Made by a program: the position numbers and the translations under genes. The notes below the pieces were generated by a model. That model was not told where the DNA came from, searched no databases, and saw only the letters and a list, made by a program, of their open reading frames with translations. A stretch of DNA of 32,000 nt from Pyrobaculum aerophilum str. IM2 (lineage in GTDB: Archaea; Thermoproteota; Thermoprotei; Thermoproteales; Thermoproteaceae): positions 960,001 through 992,000 of the forward strand of contig NC_003364.1 of NCBI RefSeq assembly GCF_000007225.1, written 5' to 3'. Every line of letters starts with the position of its first letter. Within the stretch, counting starts at the first letter, position 1. Shown here one piece after another: positions 4,809 to 29,245 of this stretch.

Positions 4809-5961
4809 CTATTTCGTTGTCAGAAAGCACGTAGTCGCGCCCAACGCGCTTAGGGCGATTGGGGAAATCCTCCCGGCGCCAAACCACGGCGTATTTAAAA
4901 GTCTCGGCCAGGGATGAGTGTATCATCGCCGCCACCTCGCCCACTGTAGAGCCGGCCTTCACTACAATGGGCTTTGGCGTGTACGTCTTTGAGTGAATAG
5001 GCTTAGTGAAGACTCTGATTCTCCCAGTGACCTTTAACAAATCCTCTAAAAGCCTCCTCTTGTCAACGCTACACGTTTTTAAGTCGGCGAGGTAATACCT
5101 CACGCCGCTTTTCGATAATAAATCAATAACTGAGTCCGAGGGCTTTAGTAAATCTGTCTTGGAAATCACCGCTATAGTCGGCTTATAGATCCTGTCTAAA
5201 TAAAGAGCTTCTTCAACTTCGTCTAGAGTAACCTCCCCCTCTATGCGCACCACTGCGTGGTATATTCCATATTCGTTTAATATTTTCTTTACATCATTTA
5301 GAGTGCCGCCTATAACCCTCCCCGAACCCATGATTTGTATCCCGCCGAGGCCCCTTCTCTCTATCTTTACATAATTCCGCAATGGGGTTAGGTAAACCCC
5401 CTCGTCCTCAAAAAACTGGAAAATCCTTTCCACAGCCCCGCGGTCTGTATCTGCGCCAATTACTAAAATCACTGCGTCTGCGTTTCTCACCGTCGCCAAA
5501 GCTATGGCGTTTAAATCACTGCTTTGATCAAGGACTAGGCTCGGCGTCTTAACCAGCTGCACGTAAACGCCGTCCTCCACGAACATTGAAGGCACGGGTT
5601 CCACTGTTGAAAAAGGCAAGTCGTCAGGTCTAAGCGTTGTGTTTGATAGACAACACAGCAGAGAGGTCTTGCCGGAGCTTGGAGGGCCCACGACCGCCAC
5701 TTGTATATCCCCCTCTTTAGCCACATAAAGGCGCGATCCGCCACCGCCCCGCAGAGCTCTCTCCTTCTCCCGCCGCTCGTTCAACTCCCTCTTCAGCTCA
5801 GCCATCCTTCTCCTTATATGCTTTATCAACTTCTCAGTCCCCTTATGTTTAGGCACTGTGGATAAAAACTCCTCCATCGCCTTAATCTTCTCCTCAGGCG
5901 TCTTCGCCTCCATCACCTTAAGCCAAGCCGCTTTAGCCTCCGCTGGCAAATTGGCAGGCAC
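4792..5961 (-). CDS. DRG/Obg-class GTP-binding protein with C-terminal TGS domain
   Basis: 389 aa with P-loop GPPSSGKTSLL and a charged helical N-terminus typical of archaeal DRG. The C-terminus is TGS-like (VFTKP...VVKAGSTVGEVAAMIH). GTG start with AGGTG 10-14 nt upstream, 23 nt after the crotonase-family stop. Confidence 0.8.
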   Translation of the reverse strand: MPANLPAEAKAAWLKVMEAKTPEEKIKAMEEFLSTVPKHKGTEKLIKHIRRRMAELKRELNERREKERALRGGGGSRLYVAKEGDIQVAVVGPPSSGKTSLLCCLSNTTLRPDDLPFSTVEPVPSMFVEDGVYVQLVKTPSLVLDQSSDLNAIALATVRNADAVILVIGADTDRGAVERIFQFFEDEGVYLTPLRNYVKIERRGLGGIQIMGSGRVIGGTLNDVKKILNEYGIYHAVVRIEGEVTLDEVEEALYLDRIYKPTIAVISKTDLLKPSDSVIDLLSKSGVRYYLADLKTCSVDKRRLLEDLLKVTGRIRVFTKPIHSKTYTPKPIVVKAGSTVGEVAAMIHSSLAETFKYAVVWRREDFPNRPKRVGRDYVLSDNEIVEIHA

Positions 5962-8041: not shown

Positions 8042-8515
8042 TTAGACCTCTTTTGCAAATAAGTACTCTATTGGTCTAAATCCCATTTTTTTGTAAAAGT
8101 TAATAGCTATCTCATTAAGCGCGGGGAAAGATGCCATAATTATCTCTGCGCCTTTCTTCCTTAACTGTTCGACGCCCTCCATCATAAGCCTTTTGCCAAT
8201 GCCCTTCCTCCTGTACTCCGGCAGTATGTAGAACTCTTTTATAACCCCGGCATATCTCGGCTTGTAGAAAATCCTGTCCTCCACGTCGCCCTTCAGCAAC
8301 CCCACTACTTTACTTCCCTCTGCCGCGACTAAAAGCACTGAGGACGGGCTATTTAAGGCGTTTTCGAGATATTTTCTAACGGCTTGTTCTATGTCTGGGA
8401 CTACTTCTAACATGGGGTCAAACTCTGCATTGAGCCGTTTTAACCTAACTACTAGCTGGACGGCAGAGTCAAGGTCTTCTTTTGTGGCGAGTCTAATCAC
8501 TACTGTTGGATACAT
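8042..8515 (-). CDS. GNAT-family N-acetyltransferase
   Basis: 157 aa with the acetyl-CoA binding motif RRKGIGKRLM and a GNAT-type beta-alpha layout. Confidence 0.8.
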   Translation of the reverse strand: MYPTVVIRLATKEDLDSAVQLVVRLKRLNAEFDPMLEVVPDIEQAVRKYLENALNSPSSVLLVAAEGSKVVGLLKGDVEDRIFYKPRYAGVIKEFYILPEYRRKGIGKRLMMEGVEQLRKKGAEIIMASFPALNEIAINFYKKMGFRPIEYLFAKEV

Positions 8516-8658
8516 AAATAGGGTATATTTTCATGTTTTTAAATATTTAATAACAGCATATACTTCTTTTATTTATTAGTATTTACATAAAAATTTTATA
8601 ATTTAAAAATAGTGAATATAGTAAAATTCTCTAGCTATGAATAGTTAATGAAATATAA

Positions 8659-9543
8659 TTAATGTTGTCCTATAAACGTCACTTCGCTTCTTAACAGTTC
8701 AGAAATAGACAACTGCTCATATCTCCCCCTTTCTGACAAGTGTAAAACCACGTACTTGTTATTAATACTAGTTACCGCCATTTTTTCGCCCTTTAAGACT
8801 ATAACATCGCCAGGTTTGTAAGTCGCGATTCTCACAGAATACGTCATATGGTATATCTTCCTGCCGTCTTTTACGCCAACAACCTTAGCCGTCTCTGTTA
8901 CGACGCTAGGGAATTGTCTGTGTATGACGTAAGCCAAATGTCTTGCGAGATTTGCATTTGTTGTATATATATCTATTCCATTTTTCAAATCTTTTATATC
9001 ACTTATAAAACCTATTTTTTTATCTTTAAGTTTATAAAGTTCTTGTTCTATTATGAAAATAATTTTCTTTTTAACGTCATTCTCTATACCTCTAGGATAC
9101 CCTCTAATTTGTAACACAGCGACTTCCCTTCTGCTTAACATCTCTCTACACGAGTTACAAATATCGTAGACGTACTCAAACGTTAAGACGTAAGTAAACA
9201 ATCTCGGCTCAATAGAGGGGTGGGGAGAGCCTTTGACCACTACTCTAGCCGTAAGGCCATCATAACTCTGAGACGCCTCTATTCTCTCTATCGCCCCGCT
9301 AACTGACGCCTTGTCTGACAAGACCTTTGCCGCCAACTCCTCCACGCCTCCCCTCCCCTCTCTAATCCACCTCCCTCTTATAAATAAAGCGCCGCAGTAC
9401 CTACACCTCAAGACTCTGGTTTCCTTTACCTTTACCAGTGGGTGTCTCTCAACGTAACAATCTTCGCACATGCCCTCAATTAGCCTATCAACTAGGCGTC
9501 CGCAAAACGGGCAAGGAATTTTAGCCACGTCTCTACCGGCCAC
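8659..9543 (-). CDS. NMD3-family protein (ribosome-associated, archaeal homologue)
   Basis: 294 aa with an N-terminal cluster of CxxC pairs (CPFCG, CEDC, CRYCG, CNSC), as in the NMD3 N-domain. GTG start. Confidence 0.75.
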   Translation of the reverse strand: MAGRDVAKIPCPFCGRLVDRLIEGMCEDCYVERHPLVKVKETRVLRCRYCGALFIRGRWIREGRGGVEELAAKVLSDKASVSGAIERIEASQSYDGLTARVVVKGSPHPSIEPRLFTYVLTFEYVYDICNSCREMLSRREVAVLQIRGYPRGIENDVKKKIIFIIEQELYKLKDKKIGFISDIKDLKNGIDIYTTNANLARHLAYVIHRQFPSVVTETAKVVGVKDGRKIYHMTYSVRIATYKPGDVIVLKGEKMAVTSINNKYVVLHLSERGRYEQLSISELLRSEVTFIGQH

Positions 9544-9591
9544 CCTCTAAATATTTTTTTACTTCTAAAGCTATGGCGTATGATAGCGGCG
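9542..9591. repeat. Direct repeat A: relic copy of the last 17 codons of the C5-MTase gene
   Basis: 46/50 identical to 14307-14356. Read on the minus strand it encodes PLSYAIALEVKKYLEG, the same as the MTase C-terminus. Confidence 0.85.
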
Positions 9592-9596
9592 TCCTC

Positions 9597-12524
9597 TTAA
9601 TTACTATTGTCAGCGCCAGCGCCTTGTTTATCACTATCAAGTTTTCCTCTGCGCCACTGGTCTACGGCGTCTTTAAGCGCCTTAAAGCGGCACAGGGCGT
9701 CTAGCTGGTCCGCGAGGAGGAACACTCTGCCCCTCTTAGCCTTTCCGGTCAGCGCCTTTAACACGGCGGCTTCCACATCGTCTTTGACCGTGAGTGTTGC
9801 CATTTCAAAGTAATACGTGGTCGTTGTATTGCCTTTTTTCTTTTGTTGCTTTTTCCAGTACCACTCTATTTTGAACTGTTTCCTCTCTCCCCCAACCTCG
9901 TACTCCGCGATAATGCGCAGGCGGCAGTCCCTTCCAGCGCAGTGGCTCACCGGCTGGCCGTTTTCCACAAATTCATACCGCAGATCTACAACGCGGGCAA
10001 TTAAGTTGCCCCCCTCGTCGTATACCGCCAGCGGAAGCTCCGCCGCTCCCTCCTCCCTCGCCGGAGTCAGAACCTCAATTAGCTTTTTCGCTGCGTCATC
10101 GCCGTGTCTGCGCTTCAAAACGTCCTCCAACTCCCTGATGAACCGCTCCGCCTCCACGTTGCCGCCCAGCGCCATACGCTGAATTTCGCGGAGGCCGTCG
10201 TAAGTGATGTAGATTATGTACTGTCCGCTCCACTTCACCGCGAAGTGCTTTCCCTCCGCCAGCCCCGCCGCCTTCAAGGCGTTTACGATGGCGTCTTTGT
10301 GGTCTTTTTTAACGCGGATTTCGCGCCTTTTATCGTAAACAGCGTAGTGCTCGCCTTTCTTCAGCCCGCTCTGCGCCAAAGTCTCAACGGCCTTGGCGTA
10401 TGCTTCTTTTGTAACGCGGATTTCGTAACCGCCATGCTCTTTCACCGTGAAGTGTATGCCCTCCTTCAGACCCCTCGCCTTTAATGCGTTTAAGGCGGCG
10501 TTTTTAGATGCCTCGCTAGTCGGAGTATATCTCACTTGTATTATATCGCTATACTTGTCTCTCGTCTTGTAATTAACCGAGAACTCCACGTCGGCGAATT
10601 TAACGGTGTTGGGCCCAGTCTCAATCTCTTTCACCACCTGTTTATACCTATTCTCGCTGATCAGCCCCTTGTCTTTAAGCTCGTCCACAAAGCTCCTCAC
10701 CGCGTTCAGCCAGCCGTTGTGGCGGATTGACGCAATGCCGTCGGTGTAGAGCTTGACTTTCCATACCTTACTTACGCGCTTAACCTCTGCCTCGCCGCCG
10801 AGGGCCCTAATGATAGAGGCCAGCCGTTCGGCGTTTTCGCGGGAGCCGCCGAATTTGGCATAAAGCTCAGTGCCGGTCCAGTATACTGTTATGTGCGCCA
10901 CTTCCTCACCGTTCAACTTGAAGCGAATTATGGCCTTTGGCCACTGCCCGCTTGTGTCCAAAGGTCCTTTCTCCACGGCGATGTTTTTGTAGACGTAGTC
11001 CTCTGCCATTGTAACAACTTCCTCTAGCTTTTTGAAAAACATTTCGTTTCTCACGTCGTAACCCCAGTCAATGCCGAATTTCCTTTTAACCGCCTCGCGG
11101 GTAACGACTTTAAACGCGTCGGCGAATTCTGTCAGGGCATCCCTAAGCTCGTGCAACGCGGGTAGCGCCGGCGTTACAGCCTCCAGTAAGCCGTTCAGCT
11201 CGGCGCCTTTGAAGGCAATATGGTGCGCGCCTCTGCCCCTATACACTGAGCTTGGCTTAAGGCCAAGCTCCTTCAGAGCCCACAGCCAGAAAGCGGTGAA
11301 GTGGTCGCGGGTCATAATCGGACTTTCCACGTGTTCAGGGCCGCCGATGAAAAGCAGAATTTCGTCTCTAAACACAGTCCCATCGTACAACACAGCGAAA
11401 ATCACCGCAAGGGCCGCCTCCTCTCTAGACAGTTCACCCATCTTGCGCGCCTCTACGGCATATGCCAGCGGGAGGAGGACGCGGAGGTATTTGCCCAGCT
11501 TGTCTACCTCCATTACCACCTTTTTCCTCTCTTCGTCCTTTTTCTCCTTTGCCTCCTCTTCTAGCTGTTTCCACAGTGCTAACAGCTCATTAACGCGCTC
11601 CCAGAACTCGCCGGCCGCCGTCTCCAAGGCCTTCTTTAATTCATCATTCATTTTAACATCAGTTAGAGCCACCTTCAGATCAACGCCGCCTTCCGACTGT
11701 TTGTTAGGTGTCAATAGATTTTCAAACACGGCGCGGCTTACACTCAGCACCTCGCGCACCGCCTCAGTGTACTTGCCCTCAACGCGCCACATCGGCTTTA
11801 GCCCCTCCTCGGAGGGGTATACTCTTACGAGCCCAATTCCGCCCCCAGCGTCGAGCTTAATTTCGCGCTCAGCCAGCGCCCAGTAGGTAAATGTCTGCGA
11901 GAGGTAAGAGGAGTCGCCGAGGACGTACTCACGTCCGGGGTATAGGACGGCGTCTGTGGGCAGTGCGCCGATTGTAATGGCCCTAGCCGTTTTCTTCACT
12001 ATTTTTCTCGTCTTTTTCACCGCTTTTACTGCCCTCTCCCACTCCCCTCCGCCAAGCCCCTCCAGTAGTTTAGAGCCGGAGGAGGCGGCCGCCGCCAAAT
12101 TAGCAACTTCTTTAAACAGCTCTACCACCTCTCCCTCCGCCGAAAGCGGTATTAGCCACTTGCCAGCCTCCCATGGGACTTTGAGGAGCTCGTGGCCGTT
12201 TTCTACAAATGTGGCGTATACGCGCCTTTTGCCGTTTTCTGTCTTCTCCTCTATGCGTACTTCCACGCCCTGTCTGCCGGCCAGTATTTCTCTCATTGCG
12301 GGTTCTATCAGTAGAGTGGCAATGCGGAAGGCCAGTTTTCTGGTCTCTGACAGCTTCTCATCACCGCTGGCTGATCTAAACACCTTGTAGAAGACGAAGG
12401 GTGTATTCCTAACAGCTGACGCAATGCTGAGAGTGCCGGCTATCTGCTCACCTTTCCCCGCCAACGCCCTCTCCATGGAGACGCCGAATAGGCCGCCAGT
12501 TACAAGCGATAGCAAAGCGGTCAC
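9597..12524 (-). CDS. paREP2b-like large repeat-family protein (probably the downstream part of a frameshift-split gene)
   Basis: 975-aa ORF, paralogous to 19203-21128 over its C-terminal two thirds. The GTG start has no promoter, and the frame stays open 186 nt upstream. The family name is from my memory of the P. aerophilum annotation. Confidence 0.7.
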   Translation of the reverse strand: MTALLSLVTGGLFGVSMERALAGKGEQIAGTLSIASAVRNTPFVFYKVFRSASGDEKLSETRKLAFRIATLLIEPAMREILAGRQGVEVRIEEKTENGKRRVYATFVENGHELLKVPWEAGKWLIPLSAEGEVVELFKEVANLAAAASSGSKLLEGLGGGEWERAVKAVKKTRKIVKKTARAITIGALPTDAVLYPGREYVLGDSSYLSQTFTYWALAEREIKLDAGGGIGLVRVYPSEEGLKPMWRVEGKYTEAVREVLSVSRAVFENLLTPNKQSEGGVDLKVALTDVKMNDELKKALETAAGEFWERVNELLALWKQLEEEAKEKKDEERKKVVMEVDKLGKYLRVLLPLAYAVEARKMGELSREEAALAVIFAVLYDGTVFRDEILLFIGGPEHVESPIMTRDHFTAFWLWALKELGLKPSSVYRGRGAHHIAFKGAELNGLLEAVTPALPALHELRDALTEFADAFKVVTREAVKRKFGIDWGYDVRNEMFFKKLEEVVTMAEDYVYKNIAVEKGPLDTSGQWPKAIIRFKLNGEEVAHITVYWTGTELYAKFGGSRENAERLASIIRALGGEAEVKRVSKVWKVKLYTDGIASIRHNGWLNAVRSFVDELKDKGLISENRYKQVVKEIETGPNTVKFADVEFSVNYKTRDKYSDIIQVRYTPTSEASKNAALNALKARGLKEGIHFTVKEHGGYEIRVTKEAYAKAVETLAQSGLKKGEHYAVYDKRREIRVKKDHKDAIVNALKAAGLAEGKHFAVKWSGQYIIYITYDGLREIQRMALGGNVEAERFIRELEDVLKRRHGDDAAKKLIEVLTPAREEGAAELPLAVYDEGGNLIARVVDLRYEFVENGQPVSHCAGRDCRLRIIAEYEVGGERKQFKIEWYWKKQQKKKGNTTTTYYFEMATLTVKDDVEAAVLKALTGKAKRGRVFLLADQLDALCRFKALKDAVDQWRRGKLDSDKQGAGADNSN
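10988..11432. repeat. 445-bp tract identical to 20609-21053
   Basis: Base-by-base comparison at an offset of 9621 found no mismatch. The flanks drop to roughly 70-75% identity by hand alignment. Confidence 0.9.
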
Positions 12525-12651
12525 TGTCCTCTCTCCTCTAGTGGCGTCTATCTTGGGAAGATCGTCTGCGGCGGCCTCCGCAAGCCTTATTACGTTCTCC
12601 GTAGCCGCTTTCAGCCTTTCGGCAATTCCGCTGTAACCAGCTCCCTCCAGC

Positions 12652-13680
12652 CTATATGCAATTCTGTCCAGCTCGTTGGTAACCTCCCTTCGCCCTTTCC
12701 GCGGCTTCTACTAACACGTTGAGGTCACCCCATACGTCGCTAAGGGCAAATCTGCCGCTTTTCACAGCTCCTTCCAGCCTTTCAAGCGCCTTGTAGGACT
12801 TGTTCTTCAGCTCTACAAACTCCCTCAAGTGGTTTAATAGCGTGAAGGAGGCTATTAGATATGCTATTCTGTCATCGTCATCTTCAAAGACCTTTACGCT
12901 CTTGCCGGTCTCCCTAGCGCCAAGTACTGCCAGAGCCCAAAGCGCCGCGGGATCTCTTTGCTCATACCACGCCTTAGAGGCCTCCTCAAGGGCCTTTTTG
13001 TAGTTGGCGGCTTTCATCGCCTGCACGTAACTCGTCAAGCGCCTTAACTCTAACACTGCATTTTCTATTTGCTTCTCATCCATCGCGTGTCTCAGCGTTG
13101 AGAAGGCGCTTACCGCCTTCTCCACAACGCCTTTGTCAAGGCCTAGCTGGGCGGCGCGCTCTACAATCTCTTTCTCGCTTGCTGTTTTTGTCAATACCGC
13201 ATTCCCTACTTCCTTCCACTTATCGCCAACGCCAGCCGCCTTTGCCAGTCCCGCTATCGCCCCGGCGTTAAGCGCTATGTGGTTCTGCCAAAGCGTGTAG
13301 TCCAGTTGTTGCGCCACTACCCACGCCATCAGCCCGGCCGCCGCGGCGGCCATTATGAACCAATGCGCTCTTACGTAGTCAAGGACTCTCGCCACCGCCT
13401 CTACAAACAGCTCGTAAAGCCTCTGCAACGTTATTCTCGCCTTTTCGAATACCTCCCTCGCGGCTTCATACGCCGCCTCGGCGGCCCTTCTTACGTACTC
13501 CACTGCCCTCTCAAAGGCCCCCTCCCTCGCCAGTACTACCGCCGCGGCCGTCGCTGACACAACAGCCGTTGAGTACAGCCCGTCGTGTAGCGCCGCGTAT
13601 CCGGCCAGGCCGGCGGCGGCTACAACTGCCGGCTTGACTGCCTCCTCTACCGCCGCGATGCATCCCGGCGCCTCTTCCAC
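12652..13680 (-). CDS. Ala-rich protein with hydrophobic segments; probable upstream part of the split paREP2b-like gene
   Basis: 342-aa ORF with a GTG start, 14-23 nt from the AT box TTTTTAAAAA (13694-13703). Its last 57 nt overlap the open upstream extension of the 975-aa frame. Confidence 0.5.
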   Translation of the reverse strand: MEEAPGCIAAVEEAVKPAVVAAAGLAGYAALHDGLYSTAVVSATAAAVVLAREGAFERAVEYVRRAAEAAYEAAREVFEKARITLQRLYELFVEAVARVLDYVRAHWFIMAAAAAGLMAWVVAQQLDYTLWQNHIALNAGAIAGLAKAAGVGDKWKEVGNAVLTKTASEKEIVERAAQLGLDKGVVEKAVSAFSTLRHAMDEKQIENAVLELRRLTSYVQAMKAANYKKALEEASKAWYEQRDPAALWALAVLGARETGKSVKVFEDDDDRIAYLIASFTLLNHLREFVELKNKSYKALERLEGAVKSGRFALSDVWGDLNVLVEAAERAKGGYQRAGQNCI

Positions 13681-13780
13681 GTATTTCCGCGCCTTTTTAA
13701 AAACAACTTAAGCGAGATTTAAGGCAATATTTTAACGCATACGCGCCATAGATTACATAAAGAACGAGGAGCCCCGCGTA

Positions 13781-14215
13781 TTGGAGTGGAGGAAGAGGGA
13801 GGAGGAGCAGAGGAGGCTTGAGCTTAAGAGTCAGGTAATGGCGGCGTTAAAGGACTGGTATCGCAGATGTTTTAAGTGGCCCATCATGCCGGGGGAGGAG
13901 GGCAAGGTAGTGAGAAGGCTAGAGCTTTACTACGGAATGTGCGAAATGGCTAAGGCCGTAATCGCCGAATACGGCGAAAAATACGCCGAGCCTCTAATCA
14001 GCGAGTATGCCCTTAGGCGCGCATTTTGGTGGGAAGGGGAATGGAGGGGGAAGCCCATGTCGTGTTTCGTGACGGAAAAGAAGGCCGTTTGCAAGGTGGG
14101 CGACAAGATGGCCACATTTTACGTATTTGACACGCCCCACGGCGTGTACCTAAGGCCAGAAATCAAGCTTGTAGACGACTGGATTAAAGTGGCGTATAGG
14201 GGCGATGACAGTTAA
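13781..14215 (+). CDS. paREP2a-like small repeat-family protein (short form)
   Basis: 144 aa. ...EYALRRAFWWEGEWRGKPMSCFVTEKKAVCKVG...GVYLRPEIKLVDDWIKVAYRGDDS recurs at 21128-21384, 21371-22204 and, degraded, at 16594-17012. The start is uncertain: TTG 13781 or ATG 13838. Confidence 0.6.
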   Translation: MEWRKREEEQRRLELKSQVMAALKDWYRRCFKWPIMPGEEGKVVRRLELYYGMCEMAKAVIAEYGEKYAEPLISEYALRRAFWWEGEWRGKPMSCFVTEKKAVCKVGDKMATFYVFDTPHGVYLRPEIKLVDDWIKVAYRGDDS

Positions 14216-14306
14216 GGCGACGTGCGTAAAAGTCCTCCTCCCAGAGGTTTTTGAACTGCCGCGGAGGTTTGGAGTGTCATGGGACTGTTTAACGCTACCT
14301 TCAACG
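14205..14306 (+). pseudogene. Truncated start of a second paREP2a-like unit (N-domain fragment)
   Basis: MTVKATCVKVLLPEVFELPRRFGVSWDCLT matches the N-terminus of the 277-aa ORF at 21371 (MEAVSVKECIRVKLPEAFELPRRFGVSWGCLT). It is cut off at the repeat B boundary. Confidence 0.55.
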
Positions 14307-15245
14307 ACCCTCTAAATATTTTTTAACCTCTAGGGCTATGGCGTATGATAGCGGCGGCGGGACGCTCTCGCCAACCTGGTTATACTGAGACTCCTTTGAG
14401 CCGAGGAATATATATCCGTCGGGATAGCCCATTAGCCTGGCCTGCTCCCGCACTGTTAATACCCTGTGCTCCTCGGGGTGTATAAACCGCCTAGAGCCCA
14501 TTACCGTGGGCGCTATGTCGTCCCACATGAGGCGTATATAATTTTCATAAAAGCCGCCTGCCCCTCTATATCTCATTAAGGCCTCGCCGGGCTTCAGCTT
14601 GGAAATTCTTTCTTGTTTCTTCGGGCTTAAAGTCGTAGTCTCGTGGTTGGGAACTATGCCGCTGTCAGGAGGAGGTAAGTCGCGCAACGCCTCTCTTACT
14701 GTAACCCGCCTAGACTTAACAGGTCTAATTTCTATATTTGATACAAATACCCTCCTTCTTCTACTAGGCACTCCGTAGTCCTCGGCGTGTAGTATATTAA
14801 AATAAACCTCGTATCCAACTCTCTTAAACTCCCTTTTAATGTAAGTCCTGAGAGGCTCTTCGGCGAGGGCGGCCACGTTCTCCATTACAAAGACCTTGGG
14901 CCCTATTTCGCCCACTAGCCTTATGAACTCTAAAGTTAATTGGCCCGCGGGGTCTGTGTAAAGCCTATCTGCCGGGTCCTCCATTCTATTGGGATTTGCC
15001 GCGGTGAACGGCTCGCAGGGCGGGCTACCGATAATTACATCGACATCACCCGCATATTTTAACAAATCCCCATAGTCTATATATCTGATGTCTTCTTGTA
15101 TAATGATTGTGTATCTGTGATTGGCGCTGTAAGTCCTCACGGCATCTCTGTCAATATCTACAGCAACAGCAATTTTAAACCCCGCCATTCTAAAGCCCAG
15201 CCCAAACCCGCCCCCGCCTGCGAATAAATCCACTGCGCTGTACAC
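14301..15245 (-). CDS. DNA (cytosine-5)-methyltransferase
   Basis: 314 aa with C5-MTase motifs in canonical order: I DLFAGGGGFGLGF, IV GSPPCEPFT (catalytic Cys), VI VFVMENV, VIII PSRRRRVFV and X GESVPPPL. GTG start with ATTATAAAC about 25 nt upstream. Confidence 0.9.
   Translation of the reverse strand: MYSAVDLFAGGGGFGLGFRMAGFKIAVAVDIDRDAVRTYSANHRYTIIIQEDIRYIDYGDLLKYAGDVDVIIGSPPCEPFTAANPNRMEDPADRLYTDPAGQLTLEFIRLVGEIGPKVFVMENVAALAEEPLRTYIKREFKRVGYEVYFNILHAEDYGVPSRRRRVFVSNIEIRPVKSRRVTVREALRDLPPPDSGIVPNHETTTLSPKKQERISKLKPGEALMRYRGAGGFYENYIRLMWDDIAPTVMGSRRFIHPEEHRVLTVREQARLMGYPDGYIFLGSKESQYNQVGESVPPPLSYAIALEVKKYLEGR
14307..14356. repeat. Direct repeat B (functional 3' end of the C5-MTase gene)
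   Basis: 46/50 identical to 9542-9591. Confidence 0.85.
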
Positions 15246-16364: not shown

Positions 16365-16407
16365 GTATCTGGCTTGATCTCTCTTTAAATTTATTTATCG
16401 TTTATAC

Positions 16408-16560
16408 CAGCGGGTTTCACCCCCTCCACTTGTCTATGGCGTCTTTCAGCGCCTTAAACCTGCGCAGGGCGTTCAGCTCGTCGGCTAAGAGATCCACTTG
16501 GACCTCTTCGCCTTCACCGTCAGCGCTTTCAACACGGTTGCCTCCACCCCGTCTTTGGCC
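16408..16560 (-). pseudogene. paREP2b-like C-terminal fragment
   Basis: The minus strand reads ...ATVLKALTVKAKRSKWISLADELNALRRFKALKDAIDKWRG*. This matches the C-termini of both large genes (e.g. AAVLKALTGKAKRGRVFLLADQLDALCRFKALKDAVDQWRRG in the 975-aa ORF). Confidence 0.65.
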
Positions 16561-16593
16561 TTTGAAGAGATCGCCTACAGAGGCCATTAAGAG

Positions 16594-17012
16594 CGAGAGG
16601 GAGTGGCGCGAGCTGAGGGATCAAGTATACCGCGCCGTGGCGGAGTGGCATAGGCAGTGTCTCGGATACTAACCGTGGTCTGAGGTGGAGGTTGTGAATC
16701 GGCATGAGGAGTACGCGGCGATGTGCCAGCTGTACCGCCTTGTCAAGGAGGAGCTGGGGGATAAGGCGTCGCTGTACGCCTCTGACTTCTCCCTCAGGTG
16801 CGTTTTTTAGTGGGAGGGGGGAGTGGCTGGGGCGTCCGCGTCGTGTCTCATAGCGGCATATAACGCCTTATGCCGCGTGGGGAGCGCCAAAATGGAATTT
16901 CGCGCTTATTATGTGAAAAACGGCGTATATCTAGAGCCGAAAATACTCCTGTACAGAGACAGAGTAAAGCGGCGCATAGGGGAGGTGGGGGCAGTTTGGA
17001 GGCAAGAAGCCG
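16594..17012 (+). pseudogene. paREP2a-like remnant with in-frame stops and frameshift
   Basis: EREWRELRDQVYRAVAEWHRQC..*..EEYAAMCQLY...SLRCVF*WEGG, then in another frame ...SCLIAAYNALCRVGSAKMEFRAYYVKNGVYLEPKILLY. It is collinear with the 13781-14215 protein. Confidence 0.65.
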
Positions 17013-17063
17013 CCGCTACAACTCACGAACTTGATTTTTTAAAGTTTTAATTCCTAACCTCAA

Positions 17064-18638: not shown

Positions 18639-19001
18639 TTGATGACAGACGAAATAGACTCCCTTCTCAGGAAAAAGGCATTGGAGCTCGCCAAGATGAG
18701 AATCCAAGAGAGCGGGCCAAAGCAAAAGGCCTTATCCGGTGATGAGGCGATCCAAATTGTTAGAAAAATTGTAAAGGGGGAAAGGGCCAGTGAAATAATT
18801 GACAACGCCCTATCACTGTATAGTCAACAGGCGATTGCCTTGTTCAAGAAGCTAGCCGAGCTCCACCTCCAAGGCGTAATTAAAGAGCTCGCAGATTATG
18901 AACTTTACCAGATGTTATTAAGACTCGGCATGAGAGTGCCCGTGAAGACTGAAATAAAAATTGTGAGACACGGCAGGGAGTACAAACTGGGAGAGTCCTA
19001 G
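18639..19001 (+). CDS. PDCD5/TFAR19-like dsDNA-binding protein
   Basis: 120 aa. SLLRKKALELAKMR... and ...LAELHLQGVIKE.LADYELYQMLLRLG...EIKIVR follow the COG2118 pattern as I remember it. Confidence 0.5.
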   Translation: MMTDEIDSLLRKKALELAKMRIQESGPKQKALSGDEAIQIVRKIVKGERASEIIDNALSLYSQQAIALFKKLAELHLQGVIKELADYELYQMLLRLGMRVPVKTEIKIVRHGREYKLGES

Positions 19002-19008
19002 CTCAGAT
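18989..19008. repeat. 20-bp direct repeat, left copy (3' end of the PDCD5-like gene)
   Basis: GGGAGAGTCCTAGCTCAGAT versus GGGAGAGTCTTAACTCAGAT at 22321-22340, 18/20 identical. Confidence 0.75.
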
Positions 19009-19202
19009 TTAGTGTGAAAAACAACGCATAGAGGAGATAGAGGTGGTTAAGGCGACGTGTAAAAAGCGCCTAAGACCTAGGGTTGAGGATTTCTAGAGTC
19101 CCGCCTCCAACGGCCCACTCCCCATCGCTACGTCTCTCGAGCTTAATGCCGTGAGACATAACATTCCATCGTAGAAGTGGAGGAATCAAAACTTTCTACG
19201 TT

Positions 19203-21128
19203 CTAATTGTCGCTCCTCTGTCCCTGTCCTTGCGAACTAGCCGGTTTTCCCTCTCTCCACTTGTCAATGGCGTCTTTTAAGGCCTTAAAGCGGCGCAAGG
19301 CGTCTAGCTGGTCGGCGTAGAGGTATACTCTGCCTCTCTTCGCCTCTTTTCCTGTCAGCGTTTCCAACACGGCCGCCTCTACTTCGTCTTTTACCGTTGG
19401 CCGTGCTATTTCGTAATAGTACGTGATAATCGCGTCGCCCTTCTTTTCCCGCTTCTCTGCCCAATACCACTCCATCTTGAACTGTCTCCTCTCGCCGCTG
19501 GGCAATTCGTATTCTACGATGATGCGCAGGCGGCAGTCCTCACCGGCGCATTGGCTCACTGGCTGGCTCGCCAGCCGCTTGCTCCTCTGTTTTCCTTTCA
19601 CGAATTCACACTTCAAATCTACAACGCGGGCGATTAAGTTGCCCCTATCGTCGTAAACTGCCAGTGGCAGATCTACAGTCCCCTCTTCCCTCGCCGGCCT
19701 CAGAACCTCTGTCAGCTTTTTCGCCGCGCCATCGCCGTGTCTACGCCTCAAAACATCCTCTAGCTCCCTGATGAACTTTTCAGCCTCCATATCGCCGTTT
19801 GACGCCATGCGTTGAATTTCGCGAAGGCCGTCGTAAGTGATGTAGACTACGTAGTATCTGCTACTCTTGACGGTGAAGTCTCTGCCCTCTTTCAGCCCCG
19901 CCGCCTTTAGGGCGTTTACAATAACGTCTTTTTGTTCCGCCTTGACGCTAATTATGCGCCATTTGCCGTAAACGGAGTAGTGTTTGCCCTCTTCCAGCCC
20001 GCTATGTACAAGGGCATCAATAGCCTTTACGAAAGCCTCTTTCGTAACACGAATTTCGTAACGTTCAGTGCCCTCTGTAGTAACCGTGAAGTGTACTCCC
20101 TCCCTCAGACCCCTTGCCATTAAGGCGTTTACGGCGGCGTTTTTAGCGTTCTCGTTGCGCGGATGATATTTTACCATTATTTTGTTTTCATAATTAACCG
20201 TGAATTCAACGCCGGCGAATTTAACGGTGTTGGGGCCGGTCTCTAGGTCCCTCACTAACTGTTCGTACTTATCTTTGTCGATTAACCCCTTGCCGTAAAG
20301 CTCGTCCACAAAGCCCCTCACCGCGTTTAGCCAGCCGTCATGGCGAATTGCTATGATGTCGTCAGTAGTGAGCCAAGTTCTCCATACCTTACCTATGCGT
20401 TTAACCTCCGCCTTACCTCCAAGCGCTCTGATAATAGAGGCCAACCTTTCGGCGTTTTCGTGAGAGCCGCCGAACTGGGCTTGTAGCTCCCTGCCAGTCC
20501 AGTACACGGTTATGTACGCCACCTCCTCCCCTCCCAACTTAAAGTGTATTACGGCCTTTGGTTGCTTACCGCTTGTATCTAACGGCCACCTCTCCACTGT
20601 GACGTTTCTGTAGACGTAGTCCTCTGCCATTGTAACAACTTCCTCTAGCTTTTTGAAAAACATTTCGTTTCTCACGTCGTAACCCCAGTCAATGCCGAAT
20701 TTCCTTTTAACCGCCTCGCGGGTAACGACTTTAAACGCGTCGGCGAATTCTGTCAGGGCATCCCTAAGCTCGTGCAACGCGGGTAGCGCCGGCGTTACAG
20801 CCTCCAGTAAGCCGTTCAGCTCGGCGCCTTTGAAGGCAATATGGTGCGCGCCTCTGCCCCTATACACTGAGCTTGGCTTAAGGCCAAGCTCCTTCAGAGC
20901 CCACAGCCAGAAAGCGGTGAAGTGGTCGCGGGTCATAATCGGACTTTCCACGTGTTCAGGGCCGCCGATGAAAAGCAGAATTTCGTCTCTAAACACAGTC
21001 CCATCGTACAACACAGCGAAAATCACCGCAAGGGCCGCCTCCTCTCTAGACAGCTCTCCCCTTCTGTACGCCTCCACGGCGTACGCCAGAGGCAAGAGAA
21101 CGTGGAAATATTTAGGCAAAAATAGCAT
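19203..21128 (-). CDS. paREP2b-like protein, N-terminally truncated copy (possibly not expressed)
   Basis: 641-aa ORF collinear with residues ~345-975 of the 975-aa ORF. Its ATG is created at the deletion junction, and no AT box lies upstream. Confidence 0.6.
   Translation of the reverse strand: MLFLPKYFHVLLPLAYAVEAYRRGELSREEAALAVIFAVLYDGTVFRDEILLFIGGPEHVESPIMTRDHFTAFWLWALKELGLKPSSVYRGRGAHHIAFKGAELNGLLEAVTPALPALHELRDALTEFADAFKVVTREAVKRKFGIDWGYDVRNEMFFKKLEEVVTMAEDYVYRNVTVERWPLDTSGKQPKAVIHFKLGGEEVAYITVYWTGRELQAQFGGSHENAERLASIIRALGGKAEVKRIGKVWRTWLTTDDIIAIRHDGWLNAVRGFVDELYGKGLIDKDKYEQLVRDLETGPNTVKFAGVEFTVNYENKIMVKYHPRNENAKNAAVNALMARGLREGVHFTVTTEGTERYEIRVTKEAFVKAIDALVHSGLEEGKHYSVYGKWRIISVKAEQKDVIVNALKAAGLKEGRDFTVKSSRYYVVYITYDGLREIQRMASNGDMEAEKFIRELEDVLRRRHGDGAAKKLTEVLRPAREEGTVDLPLAVYDDRGNLIARVVDLKCEFVKGKQRSKRLASQPVSQCAGEDCRLRIIVEYELPSGERRQFKMEWYWAEKREKKGDAIITYYYEIARPTVKDEVEAAVLETLTGKEAKRGRVYLYADQLDALRRFKALKDAIDKWREGKPASSQGQGQRSDN
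20609..21053. repeat. 445-bp tract identical to 10988-11432
   Basis: See the partner entry at 10988-11432. Confidence 0.9.
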
Positions 21129-21384
21129 TGGCTGAGTACGGCATTAAGCCAGACAGCCCGATAATCAGCGAATACGCCCTTAGGCGCGCATTTTGGTGGA
21201 ATGGGGAATGGAGGGGAAGGCCAATGTCCTGTTTCGTGACCGACTTGAGGGCGTTTTGTAAAGTGGGCAAAAAATGGCAGCGTTTTACGTATTCGACACG
21301 CCCCATGGCGTATACCTCAGGCCGGAAATCAAGCTAATAGACGAGTGGATTAAGGTGGCCCACAGGGGAGATGGAGGCGGTTAG
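21128..21384 (+). pseudogene. paREP2a-like fragment, 5'-truncated and frameshifted
   Basis: AEYGIKPDSPIISEYALRRAFWWNGEWRGRPMSCFVTDLRAFCKVGKK, then the frame is lost at the A6 run (21269-21274). With A7 it would read MAAFYVFDTPHGVYLRPEIKLIDEWIKVAHRGDGGG*. Confidence 0.7.
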
Positions 21385-22204
21385 CGTTAAGGAGTGTATA
21401 CGCGTTAAACTGCCAGAGGCCTTTGAGCTACCGAGGAGGTTTGGAGTGTCCTGGGGGTGCCTAACACAGGGCGCCTTTAGGGGTGTGGACGCCGTTGTGG
21501 CTGAGGGGAAGGGGAGGGGCGTTTATTTCCGCTACGTGCTACCCTACGACGCAAACGCCAAACGCTATATGGCGGAGTACGGGCAGAGGGAAAGGAGGGA
21601 GGGCTATGGCATATCGCCAACGCTGGCGGAGGCCCTATACGAGCTGGCTGAGAGGCATGAGGTAGAAGTCGTGATAGAGAAAACACAATACAAAACGTAT
21701 TACTACGCCGTTGTAGACGGCGTGAAGATAGACGGCAGACTTTGCTATAGGGAAAGTCTCAGGGACTGTGTCAATAAGGTAGTGAGGTGGGTTAAAGAGG
21801 AGAAAAAGTGGAGAGAATCATTGCGACTACTGAGGATTAGGGAGGAAGTGCTGAACGCAGTGGCGGAGTGGTATTTCCGCTGTTTTGGAGAAACTGCAAA
21901 CCAGCTGAAAGTGGCCAAGAGGCTAGAGGAATACCACACGCTGTGTCAAATGCGTAGCGCCGCGAAGAGGGAATTCGGAGTGGCGCCAACGGAGAGGGCC
22001 CTAAGAAGGGCATTTTGGTGGGACGGGGAGTGGGGAGGGAGGGCGTTGTCGTGTTTCGTGACGGAAAGGGAGGCGGTGTGCAGATGGGGAGGCGCGAAGT
22101 GGAAATTCACAGTGAGGGCGGGAACAGACGGCGTATATATTAAGCCTGAGAGCCCACTATACCAAGAGTGGATTAAGGCGGCACATAGGGGTAACGACAG
22201 TTAA
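21371..22204 (+). CDS. paREP2a-like protein, long form (extra ~130-aa N-domain)
   Basis: 277 aa. The C-terminal half matches 13781-14215 (ALRRAFWWDGEWGGRALSCFVTEREAVC...GVYIKPESPLYQEWIKAAHRGNDS). The N-terminal domain matches the fragment at 14205-14306. Confidence 0.65.
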   Translation: MEAVSVKECIRVKLPEAFELPRRFGVSWGCLTQGAFRGVDAVVAEGKGRGVYFRYVLPYDANAKRYMAEYGQRERREGYGISPTLAEALYELAERHEVEVVIEKTQYKTYYYAVVDGVKIDGRLCYRESLRDCVNKVVRWVKEEKKWRESLRLLRIREEVLNAVAEWYFRCFGETANQLKVAKRLEEYHTLCQMRSAAKREFGVAPTERALRRAFWWDGEWGGRALSCFVTEREAVCRWGGAKWKFTVRAGTDGVYIKPESPLYQEWIKAAHRGNDS

Positions 22205-22320
22205 GGCGACGAGAGAAGAGCCGAGTGATGAGAGGGAGTGGAAGAGGCTGTGAGAACGCCTCCACAGACCCTGTTACTCTAATTATGCGGACTCTCTTGC
22301 CCAGCTCTGCGAAGTAGTTA

Positions 22321-22340
22321 GGGAGAGTCTTAACTCAGAT
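22321..22340. repeat. 20-bp direct repeat, right copy (3' end of the Zn-ribbon gene)
   Basis: 18/20 identical to 18989-19008. Confidence 0.75.
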
Positions 22341-22581
22341 ACAGGGCATATAGCTCTTCCATCAGACCGCGCCAGTTGAATAGCCTAACAGAGTAGTTGA
22401 CATATCTCCTTGCCAATTCTCTCTTCTCCCTCTTTACATAACGCAAACAGCGCTTACAGCCAAACCAGACGTATGTGTTATCCTCAACGATCTCCATAGC
22501 ACTGCCACAGAGGGGGCATCTACTGGCCACCTCAACAGCCAGGAGATCCATACACACTATCATCCCGCCATTTAAAGCCAC
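22330..22581 (-). CDS. Small zinc-ribbon protein
   Basis: 83 aa with CPLCG...x17...CKRC. The start is GTG 22581 or ATG 22563. Confidence 0.5.
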   Translation of the reverse strand: MALNGGMIVCMDLLAVEVASRCPLCGSAMEIVEDNTYVWFGCKRCLRYVKREKRELARRYVNYSVRLFNWRGLMEELYALYLS

Positions 22582-27491: not shown

Positions 27492-27899
27492 CTAGTAGAA
27501 GTCTATTATATCGGCGTTTAAGACGCTTATAATCGGAATATCGAGGGGTATGAAATACGCCGTTCTCCCCGGCAACCTCGGCGACGCCACTATGCCTTTC
27601 TTGCCGTAAAACGCCGCGCCGATTAGCAAATTCCTGCGCGGGAAGAAAAGCCACCCAGTTCCGAAGAGCTTTTCATTTATTTTTATATATACCCCCTCAA
27701 TATCGTTTATTTTTATTTTTTTGGAGATATTTCTCTTCAAAAGTTTTTTAATATAGATATCTACCTTATCACAAGGGATTTTTTTAATAGATAAGTTTTT
27801 GTTTACTATATCTTTAATAATAATTATACATTTATTTCTTCTATACTTATTTCTATAAATCTTGATGTTTAATTGCCTACTGCCGCTGTTCATATCCAT
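27492..27899 (-). CDS. Hypothetical protein (N-terminal half encoded by very AT-rich DNA)
   Basis: 135-aa ORF with an AT box 12-28 nt upstream of its ATG. The C-terminal half looks protein-like ([41 protein letters not shown]). The N-terminal half is K/I/N-rich low complexity. Confidence 0.3.
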
Positions 27900-27910
27900 G
27901 GACCAGCGAA

Positions 27911-27927
27911 ATATTTAATTATATATT
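27911..27927. promoter_or_regulatory. Shared AT box between divergent genes (27899 minus, 27941 plus)
   Basis: ATATTTAATTATATATT lies 14-30 nt from the malic enzyme GTG and 12-28 nt from the minus-strand ATG. Confidence 0.4.
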
Positions 27928-27940
27928 AGTTATTGTCTTT

Positions 27941-29245
27941 GTGACGGAAAAATGGTACCAGCTCTCCGTAGAAATACATAGAAAATACGGAGGTAAGATA
28001 TCCATCACGCCTAAAGTCCCCATTAGATCTATGGACGACTTCGCCATATACTACACCCCTGGCATTGCAGAGGTCTCCCGACAGATACATAAAAACCCAG
28101 AGTTGGCCTTTGAGCTGACCTCTAGGTGGAATATCATAGGCGTCATTACGGACGGCACCAGAGTGCTGGGCCTTGGCAACATCGGACCAGAGGCGGCATA
28201 CCCAGTCATGGAGGGAAAAGCGCTTATTTTTAAATACCTGGGGGGAGTTGACGCAGTTCCAATACCAATTAGGGTAAAGACACAGGAGGAGTTCGTCTTT
28301 GTCGCAAAGGCGCTGGAGCCTGCTTTAGGCGGGATAAATCTTGAGGACATCGAATCGCCGAAATGCTTCTACCTCCTGGAACGGCTGAGGGAGGAGTTGC
28401 GCATCCCCGTGTGGCACGACGACCAGCAAGGCACGGCGACGGCGACTCTCGCAGGCTTAATTAACGCGCTGAAGCTCGTGGGGAAGAAAATTAGCGACGT
28501 CACAATAGCCCTTATAGGCGCAGGCGCCTCAAATATATACACAGCGAGAATTCTCATAAAATACGGCGCAAAGCCGGGCAATCTCATATTAGTGGACAGC
28601 AGGGGCATATTACACCCAGAGCGGGATGACATAGATAAATTGATGATAGAAAACCCCTGGAAGTATAAATACGCCATTGAGACTAATGCAGAAAGGCGCA
28701 AGGGAGGGATACCGGAGGCCATGAGGGGCGCCGACGTGGTCATCGCCGCGTCTAGCCCAGGGCCAGGCGTTATTAAAAAGGAGTGGGTCGCCTCTATGAA
28801 TAAAGACGCCATTGTATTCGCCTTAGCTAATCCAGTGCCGGAGATATGGCCGTGGGAGGCTAAAGAGGCGGGCGCGAAAATAGTGGCAACGGGCAGAAGC
28901 GACTTCCCCAATCAAGTGAACAACTCCCTGATTTTCCCCGCGGTTTTCAGAGGAGCTCTTGACGTAAGAGCGACGGCTATAACCGACGAGATGTTAATCG
29001 CAGCCGCCGAAGAGGTTGCTAAATTCGCCGAAGAGAAAGGCATACACGAAGAGTACATAATCCCCAAAATGACGGAGTGGGAAGTATACGTGAGAGAGGC
29101 GGCGGCGGTGGCGGCCACAGCATCCGCCCAGAAGGTGGCCAGAATACCAAGATCATATAAAGAGGAGCTTGAAATTGCCGGCAGTATTATTGGAAAAAGC
29201 ATTAAGATGTTAGAAGTTCTAATGATGGAGAAAATTATTGAATAA
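27941..29245 (+). CDS. NAD(P)-dependent malic enzyme
   Basis: 434 aa, short prokaryotic malic enzyme form: [56 protein letters not shown]. Confidence 0.9.

Follow-up and report, generated by a model that had tools for sequence, protein, structure and literature searches.

A paREP2 cassette at the methyltransferase/NMD3 junction of Pyrobaculum aerophilum lies between copies of a 50-bp direct repeat, a candidate target duplication and substrate for precise cassette loss

The window analyzed here is a 32,000-nt stretch of the chromosome of Pyrobaculum aerophilum str. IM2 (NC_003364.1, positions 960,001 to 992,000), and all coordinates refer to it. Within the window, 4.7 kb of DNA carrying genes of the paREP2 family (cassette 1) separates a gene for a C5 cytosine DNA methyltransferase (MTase) from a gene of the NMD3 family, and the cassette is bracketed by two copies of a 50-bp sequence that forms the MTase 3’ end. 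The explanation that we favor, and consider somewhat better than an even bet, is that insertion of a paREP2 cassette at the MTase/NMD3 junction created the repeat as a target-site-type duplication, and that the repeat now acts as the substrate for precise deletion of the cassette. The locus offers a natural experiment, with one site that is occupied in IM2, would have been emptied in two ways in near-identical genomes, and was never occupied in other species. The features on which the argument depends are as follows (ORF, open reading frame).

8659..9528, minus strand: NMD3-family gene (Pfam PF04981), likely 289 aa; the ORF-finder start, GTG 9543, gives 294 aa.
9533..9535, minus strand: TAG, relic of the stop codon with which the ancestral 315-aa MTase ended (...EGGR, stop), matching the MTase protein of empty sites (P0001).
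9542..9591, minus strand: copy A, an MTase 3’-end relic between the PaRep2b stop codon and NMD3; carries the NMD3 TATA-like box.
9592..14306, no strand: cassette 1, inserted paREP2 DNA (4.7 kb), missing in other Pyrobaculum species and in nine near-identical contigs.
14301..14306, minus strand: final Arg codon and stop (CGT TGA) of the IM2 MTase, made of cassette-edge sequence.
14301..15245, minus strand: MTase, 314 aa in IM2 (Pfam PF00145, E 6e-59).
14307..14356, minus strand: copy B, a Pro codon fragment and the 16 codons PLSYAIALEVKKYLEG of the intact MTase.

The two copies agree at 46 of 50 positions with no indel, as a first-pass annotation of this DNA had reported and as alignment and shuffling bear out. 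The mismatches (copy A/copy B) are at 9560/14325 (T/A), 9563/14328 (T/C), 9568/14333 (A/G), and 9569/14334 (A/G). The window holds just these two copies of the 50-mer, and none of 100 shuffles gave any match. When the windows around the cassette borders were tested for repeats, the pair scored 38, compared to a shuffle maximum of 11. Read on the minus strand, both copies translate to PLSYAIALEVKKYLEG, and each of the four differences is synonymous in the MTase frame (GCT/GCC, TTA/CTA, GAA/GAG, and GTA/GTT), which agrees with the earlier description of the mismatches as silent. The same description counted 17 MTase codons in the repeat; it contains 16 whole codons and 2 nt of a Pro codon. Two identical blocks, of 22 bp and 18 bp, are found inside the repeat. 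Past its end, copy A reads on as GGC CGG TAG (Gly, Arg, stop) and copy B as CGT TGA, which is cassette sequence. As was proposed, the IM2 MTase owes its last Arg and its stop codon to the cassette edge; empty sites have GGC CGG TAG at this point.

Relatives of NMD3 were searched for, and loci were returned from seven Pyrobaculum and two Thermoproteus genomes. In all nine, the MTase ends directly before NMD3 and the cassette is missing. A search for MTase homologues returned a protein, P0001, that equals the window MTase plus one residue and ends ...EGGR, as copy A predicts. This protein is encoded on eight contigs from metagenome-assembled genomes and public sequencing runs, with NMD3 4 nt downstream, and a metagenome scan added a ninth empty-site contig. 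On either side of the cassette, the nine contigs are 99.8–99.96% identical to the window. Several claims of the first-pass annotation are borne out here. The alignment with related genomes that it called for has the MTase abutting NMD3 in 9/9, the empty sites that it predicted exist in nine contigs, and cassette 1 is an insertion, missing both from relatives and from near-identical contigs. Copy A is a relic of the ancestral MTase-NMD3 junction, as was also proposed, because the two genes abut in nine relatives and in nine empty-site contigs, where the MTase ends in EGGR and a stop codon.

The empty sites are of two types with respect to the four variable positions. Seven of the nine have the bases of copy A (A-type), and two (L019 and L027) have those of copy B (B-type). 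All occupied contigs, including those of a 97.5% identical lineage described below, carry a B-type copy on the MTase side, at the right junction, and a copy identical to copy A on the NMD3 side. Over 5.2 kb and 1.8 kb on the MTase side, contigs L020 and L024 differ from the window only at the four repeat mismatches. Given a background of ~1.8e-4 differences per bp, four differences within 10 bp have a Poisson probability of ~4e-13, which is too low for an origin by point mutation. Either the 50-mer of the empty sites arose by recombination between the two copies, or the occupied site combines two alleles. The empty alleles are exact recombinants of both repeat copies, as expected of precise deletion mediated by a repeat.

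Multi-copy paREP2 genes break assemblies, and chance similarity or an assembly artefact might on that account be suspected behind the repeat and the empty sites. We give this explanation practically no weight. The 46/50 match falls exactly at the homology borders and was equalled in 0/100 and 0/200 shuffles, and the empty junctions occur in independent assemblies and in Logan contigs assembled with k=31. At least 24 contiguous nt are needed to connect MTase-specific sequence with an A-specific base, and at least 20 nt to connect NMD3-specific sequence with a B-specific base. With diagnostic bases 20–24 nt apart, a shared block of 22 bp or 18 bp cannot create empty junctions at k=31.

The age of the occupied state can be judged from a sister P. 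aerophilum lineage, represented by two assemblies that share ~97.5% identity with the window (97.3% on the MTase side and 97.5% on the NMD3 side). Their right junction is that of IM2, with a B-type copy, and their left junction is also that of IM2, with the PaRep2b stop codon followed by GAGGA and then the A-type copy. These shared junctions and variants indicate that the insertion and the difference between the copies are older than the divergence of the two lineages. Only the 99.9% identical population yielded empty sites, and SNP (single-nucleotide polymorphism) 8379G is common to them and some occupied haplotypes. By parsimony, the empty sites are most likely deletions caused by recombination or slippage between the repeats; re-insertion would be the other possible direction of change.

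The course of events under the favored explanation would be as follows. In an ancestor of P. aerophilum, a paREP2 cassette consisting of PaRep2a and a PaRep2b gene, here split in two, would have entered the MTase/NMD3 junction, with the duplication formed by break and fill. Copy B would have completed the MTase with an Arg and stop codon borrowed from the cassette edge, and copy A would have preserved the NMD3 promoter. The copies would then have diverged at four positions, mostly through GC-to-AT changes in the relic copy A. Homology-driven deletion, whether by recombination or by replication slippage, would remove the cassette precisely and restore the 315-aa MTase beside NMD3; crossovers in the 22-bp block would leave empty sites of the A type, and those in the 18-bp block empty sites of the B type. 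The order repeat, insert, repeat is canonical for such an insertion, and a second cassette in the window has the same geometry with a 20-bp repeat. If deletion is the correct direction, identical blocks of 22 and 18 bp suffice for precise loss of 4.7 kb in a hyperthermophilic archaeon.

A duplication at this site would also preserve the signals of both neighbours. The likely start of NMD3 is GTG 9528, as the 289-aa form is called in all other assemblies and is named in RefSeq, and the ATG of P. oguniense occupies the alignment column of this GTG. A TATA-like box precedes it.

9548..9559, minus strand: AAAAAATATTTA, putative NMD3 TATA box, at -31 to -20 from GTG 9528 and within the 18-bp identical block.

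The center of the box is ~26 nt upstream of the likely start, and AAAAAATATTTA shows hardly any nucleotide change in seven other Pyrobaculum genomes, in which adjacent synonymous positions vary. Archaeal promoters have a TATA box centered near -26, and many mRNAs in Pyrobaculum are leaderless. The spacing, taken with these promoter features, suggests that the AAAAAATATTTA region is probably the NMD3 promoter. Since AAAAAATATTTA is part of the C-terminal coding sequence of the MTase, this gene end overlaps the presumed promoter, and an insertion at this point would be harmless only if the overlap is duplicated. Insertion may thus be tolerated where a gene overlaps the signals of its neighbour, provided that the overlapping stretch is duplicated. 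An overlap of 11 nt between the continued MTase frame and NMD3, which the first-pass annotation had noted, exists for the ORF-finder start, GTG 9543; with the likely start, GTG 9528, the relic stop codon is instead followed by a 4-nt spacer.

A second paREP2 insertion in the window (cassette 2) and a degenerate third one (insertion 3) allow comparison with cassette 1.

16390..17063, no strand: insertion 3, a degenerate paREP2 remnant between a divergent 97-aa gene and the PheRS beta gene.
18989..19008, no strand: left copy of the 20-bp duplication of cassette 2, GGGAGAGTCCTAGCTCAGAT; ends the 120-aa gene 18639-19001.
19009..22320, no strand: cassette 2, absent from other species, where the flanking genes converge directly.
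19203-21128, minus strand: cassette-2 PaRep2b, 641 aa (Pfam, 898 bits).
About 21137-21370: PaRep2a pseudogene fragment in cassette 2.
21371-22204, plus strand: cassette-2 PaRep2a, 277 aa (Pfam, 194 bits).
22321..22340, no strand: right copy of the cassette-2 duplication, GGGAGAGTCTTAACTCAGAT; ends the Zn-ribbon gene 22330-22581 (minus strand).

Cassette 2 and insertion 3 (~670 bp) are likewise absent from the nine relatives. The repeat around cassette 2 scored 14, a value attained by 0/200 shuffles. In the sister lineage (L025 and L026) its copies match at 20/20 positions, and in IM2 they differ at two silent sites (AGC TAG to AGT TAA). The perfect repeat of the sister lineage shows that such repeats begin as exact duplications and diverge later. 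In the reconstructed ancestral sequence, the neighbours of cassette 2 converge and share the palindromic stop CTAG; the 20-bp duplication gives each of them its own gene end.

According to the first-pass annotation, silent-only divergence argues against a target duplication that decayed neutrally. This argument is statistically weak. About 24% of the single-base changes possible in the repeat are synonymous (37.5% of transitions and ~18% of transversions), so that four silent changes have a probability of ~0.003–0.01 if all changes were unconstrained and ~0.04–0.06 if ~20–27% of changes occurred in the selected copy B. A single event may account for two of the changes, which lie side by side (TT/CC). 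Moreover, the repeat of cassette 2 began as a perfect one. The outgroup majority base is the B-type base at three of the four sites, and by this polarity copy A would have changed C-to-T, C-to-T, and G-to-A. The silent-only pattern is thus compatible with a decayed duplication, and what it suggests about origin is weak evidence at best.

Several observations weigh against a duplication followed by deletion. The all-silent differences are mildly unexpected if most of the changes occurred in a non-coding relic (P ~0.003–0.06), and the outgroups are too distant (76–86% amino-acid identity in the MTase) for firm polarity. Since the split, both copies have stayed the same in both lineages, with ~2.6 changes expected if copy A were neutral (P ~0.07). 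Parsimony alone separates deletion from re-insertion. We know of no mechanism that yields staggered breaks of both 20 bp and 50 bp. Finally, no significant flanking repeat was found at three other cassettes (L037 and L038) or at insertion 3, all with borders that are not fixed by empty sites; this suggests that long duplications are not intrinsic to the paREP2 family.

As an alternative, the cassette may have been imported together with an already diverged MTase 3’ end, in an att-like or homing-type event. The B-type patch would then have been under coding selection in another lineage and would have recombined with an A-type resident site in the 22-bp block, by a site-specific, short-homology, or endonuclease-induced repair reaction. 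A-type empty sites would be naive targets and B-type empty sites later excisions. Silent-only differences are expected if both versions evolved as real gene ends, and the presence of only four differences over kilobases between occupied and A-type empty alleles resembles a short co-conversion tract. A-type empty alleles equal occupied ones in internal SNP diversity. Two lineages whose MTase genes otherwise differ by 2.7% have almost the same sequence over 14205-14405, and PaRep2b is predicted to contain a LAGLIDADG-like core (see below). However, no integrase or transposase was detected (Pfam, NCBIfam, PHROGs, PADLOC, and PDB sequence search), the repeats of cassettes 1 and 2 have no core in common, and the inner ends of the cassettes are not conserved. 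The perfect cassette-2 repeat in one lineage points to duplication at the origin. The empty-site crossovers fall in two blocks, which argues against a fixed crossover point, and the sister lineage is already in the occupied B...A state. A 50-bp duplication keeps every target of up to 50 bp intact in the occupied allele, unlike the immunity expected of a homing endonuclease site. A circle junction was absent from the sequences fetched and scanned. We regard such an import as unlikely, though it is the main rival of the favored explanation. Capture of a gene 3’ end in the att-like form proposed by the first-pass annotation is possible, but without an integrase, a tRNA, or a shared att core it is the less parsimonious account.

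The first-pass annotation had also raised the possibility that the repeat is left from a second MTase allele. An incoming MTase with a B-type end, accompanied by a paREP2 cassette, would have replaced the resident gene by a homologous crossover and an illegitimate join located 50 bp short of the resident end, and copy A would be the stump that remained. This would explain the silent-only differences and the cassette-derived Arg and stop codon, and paREP2 regions are clearly prone to recombination. Yet the MTases of occupied and empty haplotypes are identical outside the 10-bp patch, with no second allele visible upstream, and the illegitimate join would have had to land exactly at the end of homology by accident, and again so at cassette 2. 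We consider this explanation very improbable.

Whether the 50-mer might instead be a dispersed repeat can be answered from the window, the fetched loci, and a JGI metagenome scan, in which no dispersed repeat was found. Neither further copies nor a circle junction were present in the window or the fetched loci beyond the chromosomal junctions. The JGI scan, made with the 22-mer, returned a single contig, a B-type empty site, and no circle junction.

Known mobility machinery was sought in and around the cassette. Searches of Pfam, NCBIfam, PHROGs, PADLOC, and PDB sequences found no integrase, transposase, Cas1, or defence protein in it. The window contains no tRNA and no Rfam family at gathering score, and lenient thresholds near both repeats gave only noise; insertion at a tRNA or a known RNA was therefore rejected. 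Terminal inverted repeats are not apparent, the best inverted match of the cassette ends being 8 nt and equalled by 84/300 shuffles. No relative of PaRep2b was found among PLSDB plasmids, INPHARED phages, or IMG/VR, and a virus or plasmid origin was rejected on these grounds. A classical insertion sequence or transposon was rejected for want of a transposase and of terminal inverted repeats, and because the duplications measure 50 and 20 bp with none detectable at four other cassettes. A tyrosine- or serine-recombinase element is not favored, as no cassette ORF matched an integrase model in Pfam, NCBIfam, PHROGs, or PADLOC and the largest one is predicted to have a different fold; a casposon was rejected since Cas1, a family-B DNA polymerase, and terminal inverted repeats were all missing. 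The direct repeats that flank cassettes 1 and 2 are mutually unrelated and share no core, and the inner cassette ends are not conserved but fall at different points of the paREP2 unit. The empty-site crossovers are in two different blocks. Long duplications were seen only where neighbour genes overlap, which fits imprecise break-and-capture filtered by selection and is less in keeping with a fixed-stagger enzyme or a fixed-att recombinase.

The remaining features of cassette 1 are its paREP2 genes and their fragments.

9597..12524, minus strand: PaRep2b, 975 aa (Pfam PF07775, E 6e-278, 923 bits); its stop codon is 5 nt from copy A.
10575..11522, minus strand: PaRep2b core, residues 335-650, modeled as two alpha-beta-beta-alpha-beta-beta-alpha units resembling a LAGLIDADG double domain.
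12652..13680, minus strand: 342-aa ORF, homologous to the N-terminal modules of longer PaRep2b proteins; no Pfam match.
13781..14215, plus strand: PaRep2a, 144 aa (Pfam PF07903, E 6e-65, 217 bits).
14238..14293, plus strand: cut-off beginning of a further PaRep2a unit (long type), with 80% identity to 21410-21465.

The PaRep2a and PaRep2b proteins of both cassettes exceed the Pfam gathering scores of their families. The cassette-1 PaRep2b is 100% identical to the entry 'paREP2b [Pyrobaculum aerophilum str. IM2]'; neither PaRep2b (975 aa) nor the 342-aa ORF gave a record when looked up by exact sequence. An exhaustive HMMER search matched the 342-aa ORF to the N-terminus of a PaRep2b protein (P0183) at E 4e-66, and the ORF is probably a split-off part of the cassette-1 PaRep2b gene. 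The segment 21410-21465 is the 5’ end of the 277-aa PaRep2a gene of cassette 2, so that the right end of cassette 1 falls within a truncated PaRep2a unit.

Structure prediction gave a lead on the function of PaRep2b. The AF2 model of the full-length protein is mediocre (pLDDT 67), and its best PDB matches are weak and are LAGLIDADG proteins. Residues 335-650 modeled alone reached pLDDT 87 and pTM 0.82, and in a Foldseek comparison of this core to the PDB all of the top 50 matches were LAGLIDADG endonucleases (E to 4e-5, probability 0.98–1.00), the archaeal intron enzyme I-Tsp061I among them. The TM-scores are low (0.15–0.27) because the two units are arranged differently in the PaRep2b model. 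The core model has the alpha-beta-beta-alpha-beta-beta-alpha topology of a LAGLIDADG domain pair. In LAGLIDADG enzymes, the catalytic Asp is at the end of the LAGLIDADG helix. The first helix of unit 1 in PaRep2b ends in the near-invariant L379-Y380-D381-G382, and the helix of unit 2 ends in ...YKN, with a near-invariant N514 where the acidic residue would be; this correspondence was judged from secondary structure and not from residue-level superposition. At the sequence level, PaRep2b has no Pfam LAGLIDADG match even at E up to 10, its family profile matched no PDB sequence, and hhalign against an approximate I-DmoI sequence returned a probability of 0.2. A fold-level resemblance of the PaRep2b core to LAGLIDADG proteins is thus a lead that is predicted only.

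In the P. oguniense genome paper, PaREP2b was described as a putative transposon and paREP2 regions were tied to strain-specific indels (PMC3558965). The cassette genes described here are full members of this family (PF07903 and PF07775). Flanking duplications, natural gain/loss alleles, and the fold of PaRep2b appear to be undescribed within the literature searched. A LAGLIDADG-like fold, if the model is correct, makes 'putative transposon' a testable biochemical hypothesis.

The genes of the paREP2 family are a sizeable, strain-variable part of Pyrobaculum genomes. To our knowledge they have no assigned function or mobility mechanism so far, and we know of no explanation of the family since the genome was sequenced in the early 2000s. 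A tentative and on balance doubtful proposal is that paREP2 units are Pyrobaculum-specific mobile cassettes consisting of a LAGLIDADG-derived nuclease or nickase (PaRep2b) and a small partner protein (PaRep2a), which enter gene junctions at staggered breaks, make variable duplications of up to 50 bp, and cycle between gain and precise loss in natural populations. If true, paREP2 units would resemble homing endonuclease elements but make target duplications as transposons do, and the repeat family would have its explanation; entry at staggered breaks would mean that the duplications preserve overlapping gene ends and promoters.

Comparison to known systems shows partial likenesses. As in att elements of tyrosine recombinases (SSV-type and pNOB8-type, at tRNA genes), the insert lies between direct repeats of ~50 bp, of which one finishes the target gene and the other is left as a relic beside the downstream gene, and excision restores the junction. 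Unlike those elements, cassette 1 has no integrase or tRNA target, the sibling cassettes lack a common att core, its inner ends are variable, and crossovers occur in two blocks. Casposons are Cas1-dependent self-synthesizing transposons that insert at the 3’ ends of tRNA or protein genes with target duplications of ~14–15 bp. Common to both are insertion at a gene 3’ end and a target duplication by which the gene is kept intact, whereas Cas1, a family-B polymerase, and terminal inverted repeats are absent here and the duplications, at 20 and 50 bp, are not of fixed length.

LAGLIDADG homing genes and their 'homing cycle' are similar with respect to the predicted PaRep2b core fold, with its conserved Asp-Gly at the end of the first helix, and with respect to presence or absence at one site among near-identical genomes and a cluster of silent differences beside the insert. 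They are unlike PaRep2b in that the latter lacks sequence-level membership and has Asn in place of the acidic residue in unit 2. Homing does not normally duplicate its target, and the duplication seen here leaves every subsite of up to 50 bp intact apart from the four SNPs. As in the loss of genomic islands through flanking direct repeats, empty sites of both predicted recombinant types occur, with the gene order and reading frame of the ancestor restored; the identical blocks are very short (22 and 18 bp), and the organism is a hyperthermophilic archaeon.

Other observations concern the paREP2 units of the window and of the sister lineage. Insertion 3 consists of a PaRep2b 3’ fragment and a frameshifted PaRep2a. 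A flanking repeat containing TTTAAA is possible there, and an ungapped repeat test was not significant; each side of insertion 3 has its own TTTAAA box. The 12-mer GTTAAGGCGACG is present at 14211-14222, 19046-19057, and 22200-22211. It overlaps the PaRep2a stop codon and also stands alone, without a PaRep2a gene, at the left edge of cassette 2; sister-lineage insertion 3 retains the motif and IM2 has partly lost it. In L038, at 5573-5600 and 12857-12885, a conserved GTCATGAACA... after the PaRep2b stop codon starts a further ORF (184 aa in L038). Its occurrence in two other cassettes suggests that some paREP2 units have a third conserved gene, one that cassette 1 lacks.

Between genomes that are 99.9% identical in single-copy DNA, differences are clustered in short tracts of the PaRep2b genes (19242-19307, 20454-20516, and 20636-20645), and the cassette-1 copy of L028 falls to 75–97% identity in patches when compared to window positions 9900-12500. 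This pattern looks like frequent ectopic gene conversion among paREP2 paralogues. On the sister contigs (L025, L026, L035, and L036), the two cassette-1 junctions are located on separate contigs. Behind these junctions are unrelated nitrate-reductase-like genes, an EF-Tu-like GTPase, and polysaccharide-synthesis genes, and the two assemblies differ from each other; paREP2 copies seem to be rearrangement breakpoints.

Among the neighbouring genes, NMD3 is 55–63% identical to its Pyrobaculum orthologues, compared to 76–93% for the neighbours MTase, GNAT acetyltransferase, and isocitrate dehydrogenase. The small conserved Zn-ribbon ORF at 22330-22581 (minus strand; CPLC...CKRC, 73–83 aa) converges on the 120-aa gene. 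The 3’ half of NMD3 is AT-rich (GC 0.32 across 8501-9000), and two strongly AT-rich patches, 1501-2000 (GC 0.28) and 27501-28000 (GC 0.35), coincide with the ORFs 1646-1984 and 27492-27899, which have no assigned function.

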